From Geobacter sulfurreducens PCA (GTDB lineage: Bacteria > Desulfobacterota > Desulfuromonadia > Geobacterales > Geobacteraceae), in the NCBI RefSeq assembly GCF_000007985.2, contig NC_002939.5:2850001-2882000 (forward strand): DNA of 32,000 nucleotides, written 5' to 3'. Shown here piece after piece: positions 3,357-17,460 of this stretch; the first letter of the stretch is position 1; every line of letters begins with the position of its first letter. The position numbers and the translations under genes were made by a program. The notes under the pieces are model-generated. The model had not been told where the DNA came from and made no database searches. It saw only the letters and a list, made by a program, of their open reading frames with translations.

Positions 3357-3376
3357 TCTCTTTATTATTTTCTACT

Positions 3377-3437
3377 GCACAACGTGTATGAGGCGCACCC
3401 GCCGCGTTAGCGGTCGGCGTGCCGCCGAGAGTTATGT
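3377..3437 (-). other. integron attC site (61 bp)
   Basis: Minus strand: ACATAAC-tctc-GGCGGCACGCCGACCGC-taac-GCGGCGGGTGCGCC-tcatacac-GTTGTGC. The stem has three bulged bases on the 5' arm. R'' ACATAA is the exact reverse complement of TTATGT, which starts this cassette at 4344. Confidence 0.7.
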
Positions 3438-3598
3438 GCTAACGCATTGGGGGATATATGCGGCTTGTCAGCTTCAAGTATTTCGCTTTTTTGTTCGGTG
3501 GCGCAGTAAAGCCGCTTTCATTTTATGCAAAAGGTGGAGGATTATGGTTACTCCGTTTTGGTAGTTTTTATACTAAAGCGGCCCCTTCTGACTTTGGT

Positions 3599-4318
3599 TC
3601 ATGTGTGGATAAAAGTCTTAGCCAAAGGGGAAGGCGGTTGTAATTGCAGTTGGTTTTCTAAAGTTGCTGGAATATTTTCGTCTGCCATTTCTTTTAGGGC
3701 GTCTAGGTATGCTTGTTTGGCTGTTTGTGCGGTTATGATTTGAAATCCATAGTTGTCTGACGCTATTTGCATTGCTTTTACTGCCTCATCTATATGTCGG
3801 CCTTTAGCAACCAAGTGGTAGAAAGTTGCATATGCAACAGCAGTTTCAGGCCATTCCGGTTCAGCTGGGTGTCCAATTACAGCAAAGAAAGGCGCTTCAG
3901 TGTCATCAATATTCATAGCCATTCGGCAAGCAGCGACACCGCTACAACACGACATGCAAATTAACAGATTGCCTTTAAGCGCCTCACTAAGCGGGGTCAA
4001 AATTTCTTTCAACTCCGCCCATGTAATTTGCTCTCCGTTTGAAAGCTGTATTCCTTCGGGGAAACCATGAGCACTTATGTGTAAAACTGGTGCTCGGTCA
4101 TCATAGCTTTTGATTACCTGTGGCAGGTCGTGAGTTAGTGCGAAAACAAATGCATCTTTTGATATGGCACACCGTACAGAACATGGAATGCCGTTAAGAT
4201 TTACGGCTTGTTGGATTAATGATCCCTCTGACCTCCCGAAATAAATATCTCTGTCAGATGGTGATTCAATAATATTAACGTAGAACTTTATCGCCTCGTT
4301 ATTATTTTCCTGGGTCAT
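3599..4318 (-). CDS. minimal caspase/CHAT-like protein (His-Cys dyad), paralog A
   Basis: 239-aa ORF with RBS GAAAGGA 7 nt upstream. Alternating strand/helix pattern with PVLHISAHG (His after a hydrophobic strand) and NLLICMSCCSG (Cys after the next hydrophobic strand) about 40 aa apart, as in caspase-hemoglobinase fold proteases. Clearly alignable with 10486..11175. Confidence 0.55.
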   Translation of the reverse strand: MTQENNNEAIKFYVNIIESPSDRDIYFGRSEGSLIQQAVNLNGIPCSVRCAISKDAFVFALTHDLPQVIKSYDDRAPVLHISAHGFPEGIQLSNGEQITWAELKEILTPLSEALKGNLLICMSCCSGVAACRMAMNIDDTEAPFFAVIGHPAEPEWPETAVAYATFYHLVAKGRHIDEAVKAMQIASDNYGFQIITAQTAKQAYLDALKEMADENIPATLENQLQLQPPSPLAKTFIHT

Positions 4319-4338
4319 ATTTGATCCTTTCTCGATTC

Positions 4339-4403
4339 ACATAACGGCCGGGGGCGCACCGGCGTAGCGTAGCGGAGTCCGAGTGCCGCCGCCCATGTTG
4401 GAA
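4339..4403 (-). other. integron attC site (65 bp)
   Basis: Minus strand: TTCCAAC-at-GGGCGGCGGCAC...GTGCGCCCCC-ggcc-GTTATGT, a 10-bp stem with two bulged bases on the 5' arm. R'' TTCCAA is the exact reverse complement of TTGGAA, which starts this cassette at 5577. Confidence 0.75.
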
Positions 4404-4443
4404 GTGCTCTTTACTTTTTCGCCAATTCTCACTGTGCCTCATT

Positions 4444-5550
4444 TTATAGGGGATGGTAAGTGAACCTTACATTTGGAAAATTTTCGATGTTCTTCATGAT
4501 TTCATTGTATATGGTGTCAAACTCCCAAAAATTATTGTCTGGGCCTTCCGCGAGCTTTTGAACTTCCTGTGCCGCGTCTTCGGGGGATATTGTTTTAAAA
4601 TATTCCGAGACCCTAATAGGTATTGGCCATAAAAGACCTTGGTTCATTACTATTTTGGGGAGCTTTATGCGAGGGAATTCAATCTTGGCTATTGCACACT
4701 GTTCATTTAAGAATTTCAGTAGTGTGCTTTCATCGTGGAAAACAAATGGAGTTGGTTTGGACGTTGAAAAATCTGCCTTTACTTTATAGAGTTCTGTTTT
4801 CTGTTCATGAGCATTGTACAAATGGTAGCGCTTTGCTTGCCCCTTAAATTGGAAAACTAGCGCCCCAACTTGATAGTCTACTCTGATGAAATTAATGCAG
4901 TTCTTTTTGCCATCCTGCAGATAGCAGATCTCATCGCTGATATTAACCCTGTATGAGTATTTGCCTAGATTAGCTGAAGGAGTTCCTCTAATCCAGGACT
5001 CCCAGATGAAATCAGGTAGTAGGCCAACGAACGTCCCTTTTTTGTCAAAGAACTTGAAATGCTCAAATGAACTCATATCAAAAATTTCATCAGTTTTTAC
5101 TTCTATCTCGGTAATCGCGCAGAATATGAATACATGTGACTGTAGTGCATTCAGAACTTCAGTCTTGATATTTATTTCTTCATTATGCTTGAGCACCAGC
5201 GTTTTCATTCCAACTTCATGTGCACGTTCAACCGCTTGAGTAGTATACCCACGAGTTGTAACAAAAATACTTGTTTGTGTCGCTAGGCCTACATCCTGCA
5301 GTTTACCTATAAAAGCATCTATATGATGAGAGTCGACCTTTCTTTTGTAATCTTTGCATTCGATAGCAAAATGAACTTTTTGTCCTACTAATTCTCCTGT
5401 GATTAAGACATCTATTTCGCGCAATCCACCGGCTCCGCCCTTTCTACGCAGGGATCGTAGCCGCACATTTTTCTGCACAGTCACATTCGGTTCATCAAAG
5501 GCCGCAGCGACAACTCTCTCTACCAACTTCCATTTCTTGTCATCAGCCAT
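4444..5550 (-). CDS. Mrr-like PD-(D/E)xK restriction-endonuclease-fold domain fused to an unknown ~240-aa C-terminal domain
   Basis: 368-aa ORF. The N-terminus REIDVLITGELVGQKVHFAIECKDYKRKVDSHHIDAFIGKL...TSIFVTTRGYTTQAVERA matches the D...(E/Q)xK plus 'hhhhTtxxFT' layout of Mrr-type nucleases. I do not recognise the remainder. Confidence 0.7.
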   Translation of the reverse strand: MADDKKWKLVERVVAAAFDEPNVTVQKNVRLRSLRRKGGAGGLREIDVLITGELVGQKVHFAIECKDYKRKVDSHHIDAFIGKLQDVGLATQTSIFVTTRGYTTQAVERAHEVGMKTLVLKHNEEINIKTEVLNALQSHVFIFCAITEIEVKTDEIFDMSSFEHFKFFDKKGTFVGLLPDFIWESWIRGTPSANLGKYSYRVNISDEICYLQDGKKNCINFIRVDYQVGALVFQFKGQAKRYHLYNAHEQKTELYKVKADFSTSKPTPFVFHDESTLLKFLNEQCAIAKIEFPRIKLPKIVMNQGLLWPIPIRVSEYFKTISPEDAAQEVQKLAEGPDNNFWEFDTIYNEIMKNIENFPNVRFTYHPL

Positions 5551-5627: not shown

Positions 5628-5716
5628 GGATACTATGTAAGGCCCCCCTTGGGCATACGGATTTTTGCCGTATGCTGGACTTTGCGAGAACCCATTCTCC
5701 AAAGGAGGCCTTACCC

Positions 5717-6499
5717 ATGAGATTTTACACAAAAACTCACAAACACTACTGCGGAATCGATCTTCATGCGAAGAAAATGTTCCTCTGTATCCTGGATGCA
5801 CAGGGCGAGGTGCTCCTGCACCGCAACATCTCAAGTTCGCCGGAGGCCTTTCTCAAAGCAGTCGCGCCTTTCCGTGATGGCTTGGTGGTCGGCGTGGAAT
5901 GCATGTTTGCCTGGTACTGGCTTGCCGATCTCTGCCGTAAGGAAGGAATCGAATTTGTCTTGGGTCATGCCCTTTACATGAAAGCCGTCCACGGCGGGAA
6001 AGCGAAAAACGACAAGATCGATTCCCACAAGATCGCGGTGCTGTTACGCGGCGGCTCGTTCCCTGTTGCTTACGTCTACCCTCCGGAGATGCGCGCTACC
6101 CGCGATCTGCTGCGCCGTCGGACCCATATCCACGGTGTCGGGCAAATCCTGGCCCTGGTGATGCTCTACGAGATCCACGACATCAATCGTTTTGAGTCGG
6201 TTCAGGATTTCGCCTCTTACTGCCGCTTAGTCAAATGCAGTCACGAATCAGCCGGGAAGAAGAAAGGCAGCGGCGGCGCCAAGATCGGCAATGCGCATCT
6301 GAAGTGGGCCTTTTCCGAAGCAGCCATGCTGTTCATCCGTTACAACCCGCCGGCCAAGAAGCTGGTGGAGAATCTGGCCAAGGTACATGGCAAGGGAAAG
6401 GCTATCGGAATCATAGCGCACAAGCTGGCGCGGGCGATCTATTACATGCTGAAAAATAACGTGCCGTTCAACTTGGAGAAGTTCATGGCAACAGCATAG
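5717..6499 (+). CDS. IS110 family transposase with in-frame ~88-aa internal deletion (probably defective)
   Basis: ORF track 5672..6499 trimmed to ATG 5717 (AAAGGAGG RBS). It has an N-terminal DEDD/RuvC-like YCGIDLH..VGVECMF..KNDKIDSHKIA and a C-terminal Transposase_20-like part. It lacks the segment NFFVRKRAEL...LKLLRSIN that is present in the 348-aa copy at 15260..16306. Confidence 0.75.
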   Translation: MRFYTKTHKHYCGIDLHAKKMFLCILDAQGEVLLHRNISSSPEAFLKAVAPFRDGLVVGVECMFAWYWLADLCRKEGIEFVLGHALYMKAVHGGKAKNDKIDSHKIAVLLRGGSFPVAYVYPPEMRATRDLLRRRTHIHGVGQILALVMLYEIHDINRFESVQDFASYCRLVKCSHESAGKKKGSGGAKIGNAHLKWAFSEAAMLFIRYNPPAKKLVENLAKVHGKGKAIGIIAHKLARAIYYMLKNNVPFNLEKFMATA

Positions 6500-16436: not shown

Positions 16437-17230
16437 CAGGTCTTTGAAAAACTATCAGTATTTAGGACCATTTTGACACAGTTTTATGCTATCTTATTGC
16501 GCATAACAAGCTGATATTCCAGGAGAATAAATATGCGCGGCCTTGAGCAACAATCTGATGCTTTGTTCGTTTATCTCTCGCCGGAATCCTTCGTTCCCAA
16601 AGACCATCCCCTTCGGCCGATTCGGCACATGGTAGATGCGGCACTGGAAAACCTTTCGCCGGTGTTCAGTAAGATGTACTCCCATACGGGCCGGCCCTCG
16701 ATTCCGCCGGAGCGCTTGCTCAAAGCCATGCTGCTTCAGGTGCTGTACTCGATTCCCAGTAACGTCAAGCTGGTTGAGCAGATTCACTTCAGTATCCTGT
16801 TCCGCTGGTTCCTTGGCCTGGGCCTGGATGATCCAGTTTGGGATAATTCCAGCTTCAGCACGAATCAGGAGCGGTTGATCGAGACCGATGTCGCCACGCA
16901 GTTCCTGGAGGCAGTACTTGATCAGGCGAAATGCAAGAAACTGCTCTCCAAAGATCACTTCAGTGTTGATGGCACCCTGATCCAGTCATGGGCCTCCATC
17001 AAGAGCTTCAAGTCACGGGACGATGATGACGGGCAACCGCCTGCCGGCAAGAATCCGGGCCGTGATTTCCAGGGTGAGAAGCTGAGCAACGAGACTCATG
17101 CATCCACTACCGATCCTGAAGCGAAGCTCTATCGCAAGGGGATCAACCAAGAGCCTCGATTGTCGTTTGCGGCCCATCTGCTGACCGAGAATCTGAATGG
17201 GCTGGTCATGATGAGTACCGTTACCGCATC
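16437..17230 (+). mobile_element. IS5 family element, second copy, 3'-truncated
   Basis: Left end CAGGTCTTTGAAAAA (16437-) resembles the IR of the 13092..14410 copy, and the GCGCATAAC box upstream of the ATG is shared. Homology to the intact copy stops near 17228, where GC content jumps. No right IR is present. Confidence 0.75.
16533..17228 (+). pseudogene. IS5 family transposase, N-terminal ~230 codons only
   Basis: MRGLEQQSDALFVYLSPESFVPKDHPLRPIRHMV...STVTAS aligns with residues 1-~235 of the 13241..14326 product. The remainder of track ORF 16533..17381 (PLPPHHPEPACP...) is unrelated GC-rich read-through. Confidence 0.75.
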
Positions 17231-17460
17231 CCCCCTACCCCCGCACCACCCGGAGCCCGCATGCCCCCTCTGTCCGCGAGGCCCCTGCAAACACCCGTGG
17301 CCACACGCCCCGCATGGCTCACCACCACGGAGGCATAGGGCGCATCGAGGTGCTCCCAGAGCAGGACATCAATTTCACTGAATCGCGGGGAATACTTGGC
17401 GAACGGCTGGGGCGGGAACGGTACGAAAAGGCGCAACACAGCATTTTCACGACGTTTCAT
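17221..17460 (-). pseudogene. possible 5' fragment of an unknown core gene cut off at the island border
   Basis: ATG 17460 with AGGGG upstream: MKRRENAVLRLFVPFPPQPFAKYSPRFSEIDVLLWEHLDAPYA... The frame runs into the truncated IS5 copy. No family recognised. Confidence 0.25.

Follow-up and report, generated by a model that had tools for sequence, protein, structure and literature searches.

Caspase-like proteases serve as executioners in bacterial immunity, as exemplified by type IV Thoeris, by PCaspase and SAVED-CHAT, and by the activation of gasdermins. To our knowledge, all the bacterial immune proteases of this kind that have been studied are coupled to either a sensor domain or a partner gene. 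In type IV Thoeris, a caspase-like effector named ThsE is combined with a TIR protein and activated by N7-cADPR, and a specificity of the Arg/Lys type was reported for bacterial ThsE and for PCaspase (Rousset et al., doi 10.1101/2024.10.24.620036). Two further reports describe integron cassettes that encode phage defense (Kieffer et al. 2025; Darracq et al. 2025). Here, we describe a gene for a 239-amino-acid (aa) protein that is carried by an integron gene cassette of Geobacter sulfurreducens PCA. It lies within a 32,000-nucleotide (nt) stretch of contig NC_002939.5 (positions 2,850,001 to 2,882,000), hereafter referred to as the window, and all coordinates are counted from the first letter of this stretch (Table 1). 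The protein is predicted to be a minimal clan-CD peptidase and, in contrast to the coupled systems mentioned above, it belongs to a large family of bare catalytic cores that occurs in many phyla, has no conserved partner and repeatedly appears as a single-gene integron cassette.

The structure of the 239-aa protein was modeled with AlphaFold2 using an alignment of 50 sequences (A1) drawn from 138 matches to its relatives, and the resulting model was of high confidence (predicted local distance difference test (pLDDT) 89.6; predicted template modeling score (pTM) 0.83). When this model was compared with the PDB using Foldseek, all 50 of the 50 matches listed were clan-CD folds. The best match was the CHAT domain of the SAVED-CHAT filament 8tl0 (E 5.5e-9, template modeling (TM) score 0.57), and the further ones included caspases 11, 7, 9, 8, 4, 3 and 1, CED-3, a Bacteroides C11 protease, legumain and the GPI transamidase 8imx. 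A search of a viral structure library likewise yielded caspase- and clostripain-like proteins. The elements of the model follow each other as β1-α-β2-α-β3-(hairpin)-α-β4-α-β5-α-α-β6, which is the order seen in caspases. According to the model, the fold is therefore caspase-like and belongs to clan CD, in agreement with a preliminary description of the window, made from the letters alone, that had proposed a minimal caspase-like family at this position. The same description had assigned to this family a second protein of the window, 229 aa in length (the paralog, discussed below). The AlphaFold2 model of this paralog (pLDDT 86.9, pTM 0.85; alignment A2, 45 sequences from 424 matches) retrieved caspases 6, 7 and 3 as its top PDB matches (E ~4e-5), with a few unrelated folds further down. 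For both predicted structures, it is thus clan-CD or caspase folds, and not a different fold, that match best. A search with the family profile against all PDB chains gave no match at E≤10, and the family is therefore tied to known structures by fold comparison only. An hhalign comparison of the profile with a human caspase-3 sequence resulted in a probability of 0.4% and no meaningful alignment.

Among described structures, the CHAT domain of SAVED-CHAT, a protein associated with CBASS and type III CRISPR, is the closest one based on the model. The resemblance extends over ~220 aligned columns (the TM-score above being calculated on the query) and comprises the same His...Cys core of clan CD, and a weak Pfam CHAT signal is present in the 239-aa protein as well. 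Sequence identity between the two is 13-15%. SAVED-CHAT differs in that it comprises ~478 aa and carries a SAVED sensor that drives the formation of filaments and has a cyclic oligonucleotide as its ligand, whereas the 239-aa protein has no sensor. Caspases and metacaspases (C14) and legumain (C13) share with the 239-aa protein the fold, the order of elements, the His-Gly after β3 and the Cys after β4. The spacing from His to Cys (41 residues in the 239-aa protein) and the size, which is near that of a caspase p20+p10 core, are further points of likeness to these enzymes. Unlike them, the 239-aa protein has no prodomain, no obvious inter-subunit linker and no significant sequence match, and its family carries additional invariant residues (His80, Ser82, Ser123, Glu18 and Asp24) that do not belong to the hallmarks of caspases.

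A His after strand β3 and a Cys after strand β4 constitute the arrangement that defines clan CD. In the model, β3 (residues 76-82) is followed by His84-Gly85 (VLHISA-H84-G85) and β4 (residues 119-123) by Cys125 (LICMS-x-C125), which places the two predicted catalytic residues at the canonical positions. Both are essentially invariant. Indeed, in an alignment of 255 sequences, which takes in representatives clustered at 50% identity, His84 was conserved in 254 and Cys125 in all 255 sequences, next to Gly85, His80 and Ser123 (253 each) and Glu18 (247 of the 248 non-gap residues). The preliminary description had named variation of the His and Cys across the family as an outcome that would speak against it, and this is not what the alignment shows. 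The residue just before Cys125 is Cys, Ser or Thr across the family, unlike the Ala that is typical of clan CD. At the end of β1, caspases carry an Arg that binds the P1 residue, and legumain has its third catalytic residue there. In the 239-aa protein, an acidic, near-invariant motif is located at the end of β1 and after it, and the pattern E-S-x4-D-x6-[ED]-G is common to this family and that of the paralog, as aligned by profile (invariant in A2). Judging from topology only, Glu18, Asp24 and Glu31 could contribute to the S1 pocket or provide a third catalytic residue. Past the last core strand, the protein continues for ~40 residues, which were modeled as two helices with low confidence. In closer relatives (among P0001-P0120, considering the C-terminal 45 residues), an acidic linker is followed by a short C-terminal motif (PPSPLAKTF, PPSNLAKLT or PGELAKLL), with the strict pattern being present in only 20 of 254 sequences. 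This LAK-type motif could be a docking site, a pseudo-substrate or a cleavage site for a Lys/Arg-specific enzyme.

The open reading frame (ORF) encoding the 239-aa protein is a real gene under purifying selection. It is preceded by an AAGGA Shine-Dalgarno sequence, 6 nt 5' of the ATG, and an 87%-identical copy on the metagenome contig L004 differs from it in 69 synonymous but only 12 amino-acid-changing codons (157 codons being identical), which is the basis for the conclusion on selection. Both window proteins carry the automatic UniRef name 'CHAT domain-containing protein', and the fold assignment of the 239-aa protein is therefore not new in itself. In Pfam, the protein scores 13.3 bits with CHAT (PF12770; E 0.056, residues 65-125) and 16.5 bits with Peptidase_C13 (legumain), compared to a gathering threshold of 24 bits and a threshold of 22.8, respectively. 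Weak signals on the segment from His to Cys were also obtained for other members of the family, with 23 out of 50 for Peptidase_C13 and 15 out of 50 for CHAT (best CHAT E 3e-5), and one relative (P0037) has a precomputed PF12770 match. Peptidase_C14 was matched by neither window protein at E≤1, and it did not come up for any member of A1 or A2 at E≤0.1. Furthermore, no model of PADLOC or NCBIfam matched the 239-aa or the 229-aa protein. By its sequences, the family appears to be a stand-alone catalytic-core variant within a known superfamily, and we found no description of it in the literature searched. Likewise, no description of an integron cassette with a caspase or CHAT gene, or of a stand-alone CHAT protein, was found in this literature, and one integron-cassette paper that was searched did not mention caspase, CHAT, protease or peptidase.

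Table 1. Positions of the 239-aa protein gene, its cassette and the other features of the window.
Feature	Position	Strand	Remarks
Gene of the 239-aa minimal clan-CD (CHAT/caspase-like) protein	3599..4318	-	Exact database match GenBank AFP20487.1
Codon of His84, predicted catalytic His	4067..4069	-	LHISAHG motif; directly after β3
Codon of Cys125, predicted catalytic Cys	3944..3946	-	CMSCCSG motif; directly after β4
Acidic N-terminal motif	4226..4267	-	Glu18-Ser19-Pro20 ... Asp24 ... Glu31
Complete integron gene cassette, 962 nt	3383..4344	-	From TT of GTTATGT (4345-4339) to G of its own R' GTTGTGC (3383-3377)
attC of the 239-aa gene cassette	3377..3438	-	R'' CACATAAC (3438-3431), R' GTTGTGC (3383-3377)
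attC of the upstream Mrr-nuclease cassette	4339..4404	-	R'' CTTCCAAC (4404-4397); R' GTTATGT provides the beginning of the caspase-like cassette
61-codon ORF, antisense to the 239-aa gene, in the 3' untranslated portion	3458..3643	+	Overlaps the last 45 nt of the 239-aa gene
229-aa minimal caspase-like paralog (AFP20489.1 / WP_010943232.1)	10486..11175	-	Second family, related to Pfam DUF6642; shares its cassette with the TIR gene
Upstream one-gene cassette, 368-aa protein	4444-5550	-	N-terminal Mrr-type restriction endonuclease domain (Pfam E 4e-10)
Last cassette ORF, 148 aa	2910-3356	-	GTG start; begins MIMKYEDKFIAFVDVLGFKSMV
One-gene cassette, 322-aa protein	11253-12221	-	C-terminal LprI (lysozyme-inhibitor) domain
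One-gene cassette, 224-aa protein	12303-12977	-	Resembles a lipoprotein on inspection (N-terminus hydrophobic up to a Cys)
Two diverged, inverted IS110-family copies	5628-6998; 14784-16392	+; -	74-92% complementary over matched arms
Two IS5-family transposase genes	13241-14374; 16533-17381	-; +	Integrase-proximal end of the array

The segment from 4344 to 3383 is a discrete mobile integron gene cassette, as established by its boundaries in a second context, by the complementarity between its start and its R'' box and by the folding of its reassembled attC. First, positions 3368-4345 are 86.7% identical to contig L004 over 978 nt. The similarity sets in exactly at GTTATGTG and stops at ...ACACGTT|, i.e. 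at the G|TT crossover of the R' box. It covers the ORF, 160 nt of 3' region and the attC of 60 nt, in which there is one mismatch, while the flanks are unrelated. The gene 5' of the cassette also differs between the two contexts, encoding an Mrr protein in the window and a Peptidase_S41 in L004. Second, the cassette begins with eight nucleotides, GTTATGTG (4345-4338), that are exactly reverse-complementary to its own R'' CACATAAC and form a perfect 8-bp R''/R' stem with it, as expected for a circular cassette that was opened at G|TT. The same complementarity was observed for the Mrr cassette (GTTGGAAG at 5578-5571 with R'' CTTCCAAC at 4404-4397) and for the LprI cassette (GTTAAGGA at 12234-12227 with TCCTTAAC at 11259-11252). 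Third, the attC of the 239-aa gene cassette folded with z=-2.4 as found in the window and with z=-3.9 when reassembled with its own R' (0 of 200 shuffles as good). For the Mrr attC, reassembly resulted in z=-1.8 to -1.9, with 10-11 of 200 shuffles being as good. In the context of the array, the site at 4403-4339 folded no better than shuffles (z=+0.3), which is expected for a junction site that is a hybrid of the halves of two cassettes. The box pair ACATAAC ... GTTGTGC of the site at 3438-3377 has the imperfect inverted-repeat form of attC sites (RYYYAAC/GTTRRRY-like). Both attC sites had been placed correctly in the preliminary description (4403-4339 and 3437-3377); the first one belongs to the Mrr cassette and the second one to the cassette of the 239-aa gene. 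No σ70-like promoter site was found inside the latter.

A home-made attC detector, which combined AAC...GTT with folding energy, found the sites of the window but was unspecific elsewhere (23 of 48 downstream regions versus 22 of 48 opposite-strand controls) and was replaced by a test for exact 8-mer R'/R'' complementarity. Using this test, a cassette signature around a single gene was detected at 10 out of 54 loci of the family compared to 2.5% of mismatched controls, and the one-gene cassette format therefore recurs. The combination of the same cassette in two contexts with R'/R'' complementarity is a reusable check that yields cassette boundaries without an attC model.

An exhaustive hidden Markov model search for the family retrieved at least 2,881 clusters (50% identity) at E≤1e-3, of which 1,558 remained at ≤1e-10 and 420 at ≤1e-30. 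The best 150 of the 2,881 representative clusters all had lengths of 165-276 aa, and 120 word-index matches ranged from 217 to 306 aa, consistent with the earlier remark that these proteins of about 230 aa have no sensor or effector extension. Throughout the family, lengths are consistently about 200-270 aa. In a scan of one genome per species, 57 loci were found in Proteobacteria, Nitrospirota, Planctomycetota, Acidobacteriota, Bacteroidota, candidate phyla and one Methanobacterium bin. The gene is present in two overlapping or adjacent frames in two genome bins (L037, 1723-2469; L049, 1208-1992), a pattern that probably stems from frameshifts or pseudogenes and not from tandem duplication. 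Viral contigs rarely contain the family (3 loci among 2.9 million), only 4 weak matches were obtained on plasmids, and a phage origin was rejected. When the ORFs within 3.5 kb of the gene were clustered for 48 genome loci, the family itself was the only one common to more than two loci, and domain scans of 146 flanking proteins revealed no dominant family; the idea of a conserved partner gene was thus dismissed. These flanking proteins include mads, PD-T7-4, PD-T4-6, type I restriction-modification, GajB, a defense-associated reverse transcriptase (DRT), ParE toxins and integron-integrase-like genes. Individual look-ups of the neighbors of members further identified DUF1156/DUF499, BrnT/antitoxin, PLD together with AbiJ, and HicB.

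The likeness between the two window proteins, first noticed in the preliminary description, held up in pairwise and profile alignments. BLASTP aligned them with E=1e-5 and 22% identity over 157 aa, while hhalign of the two family profiles resulted in a probability of 96.6% (E=6.4e-10, 151 columns). In addition, six other proteins of the first family matched the gene of the paralog directly by tblastn (3e-5 to 6e-8). All four segment pairs singled out in the preliminary description are aligned by hhalign, namely IIES/IIES, LHISAHG/LHLSCHG, CMSCCSG/VSGCNLG and FFAVIGHP/YSVTAPM, and His84 and Cys125 correspond to His80 and Cys116 of the paralog in the profile alignment. Homology beyond chance is therefore retained from the earlier claim of an alignment along the whole length, but the significant part is limited to residues 4-171 versus 7-161, i.e. 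to the catalytic core without the last ~65 residues. Much closer relatives exist elsewhere, P0001 being 95% identical to the 239-aa protein and P0122 85% identical to the 229-aa protein. Given the mutual identity of 22%, these closer relatives and the different cassettes, sequence comparison argues for remote homologs that were acquired independently as separate cassettes, with no local duplication, in keeping with the old paralogs or independent acquisitions that had been suggested from the low identity. The two families were also considered as a co-occurring pair; this was rejected, as they are found together in the window only, among 79 loci plus the window with any match.

The cassette that the paralog shares with the TIR gene, considered here over 10406-11205 on the reverse strand, starts with G|TTGAAC (11206-11200). 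The start of the paralog is likely at 11175, since a longer frame of 241 aa would begin inside the attC of the preceding cassette. No attC-like fold was seen in the 80-nt spacer ahead of the TIR start (z=+0.2). The TIR gene itself is ThsB-like (7015-10405, reverse strand) and split by an IS21-family insertion sequence (IS) element (~8.30-10.24 kb, with istA at 8360-9385 and istB extending to 10176). When its two halves are joined, the TIR_2 match becomes continuous again (E 2e-18) and is part of a protein of ~469 aa, which has a long C-terminal region without assigned function and for which the candidate PDC-S66 was the best PADLOC model. This pairing of a TIR protein with the 229-aa protein in one cassette recalls type IV Thoeris. 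In four other contexts of the paralog family no TIR neighbor was seen; members elsewhere are located in cassette-like arrays, beside an integrase fragment or inside a methylase/Vsr/helicase island. Weak matches to DUF6642 (PF20347), a Pfam family of short bacterial proteins without assigned function, were obtained for 9 of 45 members of the paralog family (best E 6.6e-6), and neither window protein matched it at E≤0.1. DUF6642 was not mentioned in any paper of the searched literature.

By analogy, ThsE and PCaspase would be the closest functional counterparts of the 239-aa protein. ThsE is a bacterial caspase-like executioner, whose catalytic C129 has a similar position to C125 in the 239-aa protein and C116 in the paralog, and a coupling to TIR is seen here as well, for the paralog only and in the window only. 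Unlike ThsE, which always has an adjacent short TIR gene, the 239-aa protein has no TIR in its gene cassette and no recurrent partner among the 48 loci. The C-terminal domain of ThsE was proposed to bind N7-cADPR, and the caspase family was introduced with PF00656 in the same work (doi 10.1101/2024.10.24.620036), whereas the 239-aa protein has no such domain and the window proteins do not match PF00656. As ThsE was compared by its description, it is these partner and domain features that set the 239-aa protein apart from it. The locus also resembles the integron cassettes known to encode phage defense, being a compact gene in a promoterless, attC-bounded cassette and part of an array with nuclease and TIR cassettes.

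We hypothesize that the cassette carries a self-contained clan-CD conflict protease that is latent until triggered, an overall picture to which we would give roughly even chances; within it, a clan-CD peptidase in a cassette stands on much firmer ground than a role in defense. The 239-aa protein would act alone, as a conflict protease of the anti-phage or abortive-infection type, and would be made in a latent form that becomes active on a trigger. Following the example of caspases, dimerization or the binding of an invader-derived factor would be the most plausible trigger, after which the activated protease would cut host or phage proteins. Glu18, Asp24 and Glu31 may form an acidic S1 pocket, and cleavage after Arg or Lys is predicted because these invariant acidic residues are located where clan-CD enzymes have their S1 pocket or third catalytic residue. 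In the window, the conflict context consists of adjacent cassettes with an Mrr-type nuclease and a TIR protein.

Several points weigh against this picture. The defense role draws on context and analogy, and adjacency inside arrays is weak evidence because integron arrays carry many non-defense genes. Moreover, several members of the family are located among housekeeping genes, for example in Rhodanobacter between fabV-like and HxsD/radical-SAM genes. PADLOC has no model for the protein, its Pfam scores stay under the thresholds of CHAT and C13, with no Peptidase_C14 match at all, and the TM-scores of its model to known structures are moderate (0.50-0.57). The juxtaposition of His84 and Cys125, deduced from adjacent parallel strands, and the prediction of Arg/Lys at P1 both have topology as their sole basis. 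A further difficulty is how a protease of 239 aa that looks unregulated would avoid harming its own cell. Finally, an antisense ORF is conserved in one clade, and the cassette may therefore not be strictly a one-gene cassette.

A bolder version of the conflict-protease picture is conceivable, though doubtful. In this version, the proteins of ~230 aa would be the smallest self-sufficient immune caspases, with one core both sensing and executing, and integrons would circulate one-gene modules for cell suicide or phage cleavage, while the TIR-linked paralog would represent a new minimal Thoeris-like pair. Sensing might then occur through invader-induced dimerization or through the capture of a diffusible TIR-type signal without a sensor domain. 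Should the 239-aa protein prove to be an active and regulated protease, it would show what is minimally required to control an enzyme with a caspase fold, and it would add a one-gene module to the defense functions borne by integrons. If it is not, it is still a well-delimited and easily cloned test case of 720 bp.

Alternatively, the 239-aa protein could be an orphan effector, i.e. a mini-caspase that is switched on in trans by a small-molecule signal from a sensor encoded elsewhere, such as a TIR-type generator. This would be in line with the paralog in the same array, which shares its cassette with the ThsB-like TIR gene across a spacer without attC, and with type IV Thoeris, where a TIR protein is paired with a caspase-like effector activated by N7-cADPR (doi 10.1101/2024.10.24.620036). 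However, we consider such an orphan effector unlikely. Neither TIR nor any other partner recurs at the 48 genome loci of the first family, and members of the second family elsewhere have no TIR neighbor either. Furthermore, the Thoeris effector has a proposed signal-binding C-terminal domain, while the 239-aa protein extends only ~40 residues past the core, and no ligand pocket was identified in it.

A role outside defense would imply a niche-adaptive or regulatory peptidase, or a legumain-like transpeptidase/ligase, that travels as a cassette and, for example, processes a specific host protein. Most integron cassettes have functions that are unknown and non-defense, clan CD includes transamidases (GPI transamidase 8imx being among the fold matches), and some members of the family do occur among housekeeping genes. 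The family is nevertheless spread patchily over many phyla, with no conserved neighbor and no vertical pattern, as is typical of conflict genes, and defense genes recur beside its members. As there is also no signal peptide and no substrate gene nearby, a non-defense function seems improbable to us.

A further alternative concerns the antisense ORF. The preliminary description had stated that the gene occupies its cassette alone. This is correct for the gene strand, on which the cassette contains no second ORF of ≥20 aa, but is slightly qualified by the opposite strand, where an ORF of 61 codons is conserved in the closest relatives. In the three closest lineages (the window, L004 and L075/L076), this antisense ORF is open and has a similar sequence, with substitutions by codon position of 10/4/19 and with 12 synonymous versus 13 non-synonymous codons, and it is possibly a small second gene. 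Since toxin-antitoxin cassettes are common in integrons, one may think of an addiction module in which the product or transcript of the antisense ORF holds the protease in check and thereby stabilizes the cassette array. The conservation and codon-position bias of this ORF, the overlap of its 3' end with the protease gene and the ParE and BrnT toxin genes that adjoin some members of the family would all fit such a module. However, P0003, in which the stop codon is immediately followed by the attC, does not have the ORF, and neither do any of the more distant members. It has no Pfam match, a search of 5.8 billion proteins found only the ORF product itself, and no promoter-like site was identified for it. 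Given these observations, the antisense ORF is at best a clade-specific addition, and an addiction module is quite unlikely.

Last, a catalytically dead scaffold or decoy with a caspase fold might be suspected from the scores under the Pfam thresholds and the atypical residue before the Cys, but it is very improbable, as the invariance of His84, Gly85 and Cys125 in ~255 diverse sequences is not expected of a pseudo-enzyme.

The surroundings of the cassette differ in composition from the remainder of the window, with a G+C content of 41-54% across 3-17 kb versus 59-70% beyond 17 kb, in line with the insertion of a foreign cassette array between chromosomal genes. On one side, the array is flanked by genes for MarR and a pyridine-nucleotide oxidoreductase, and on the other side by those for a GT41/TPR protein, a tRNA, rpsA and ispH; the identity of the organism is confirmed by the rpsA and dihydrolipoyl dehydrogenase genes in the flanks. 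No integron integrase was found in the window, neither as a domain in the array-flanking ORFs nor as a tblastn match to the integrase-like neighbors of relatives, and none is located between the array and the chromosomal genes beyond its IS5-family end. Within the window, the array is therefore an attC cluster without integrase, and it is heavily invaded by IS elements. Regarding the other cassettes, the 368-aa Mrr protein has a weak match to a type IV restriction endonuclease in PADLOC and a long C-terminal part without assigned function. The 148-aa ORF, which had no Pfam or PADLOC match at E≤1, may be truncated; its start, MIMKYEDKFIAFVDVLGFKSMV, resembles the metal-binding start of class III nucleotide cyclases. 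The first of the two IS110-family copies (5628-6998) encodes a shortened transposase of 275 aa and appears to lie inside the attC that closes the cassette of the paralog and the TIR gene, similar to IS110/IS1111 elements that target attC sites. The second IS5-family gene (16533-17381) is the shorter one, with 282 aa, and its match to the IS5 model is confined to the first part of that model. Between the cassettes of the 322-aa and 224-aa genes, the attC at 12301-12228 folds strongly, with z=-3.8.

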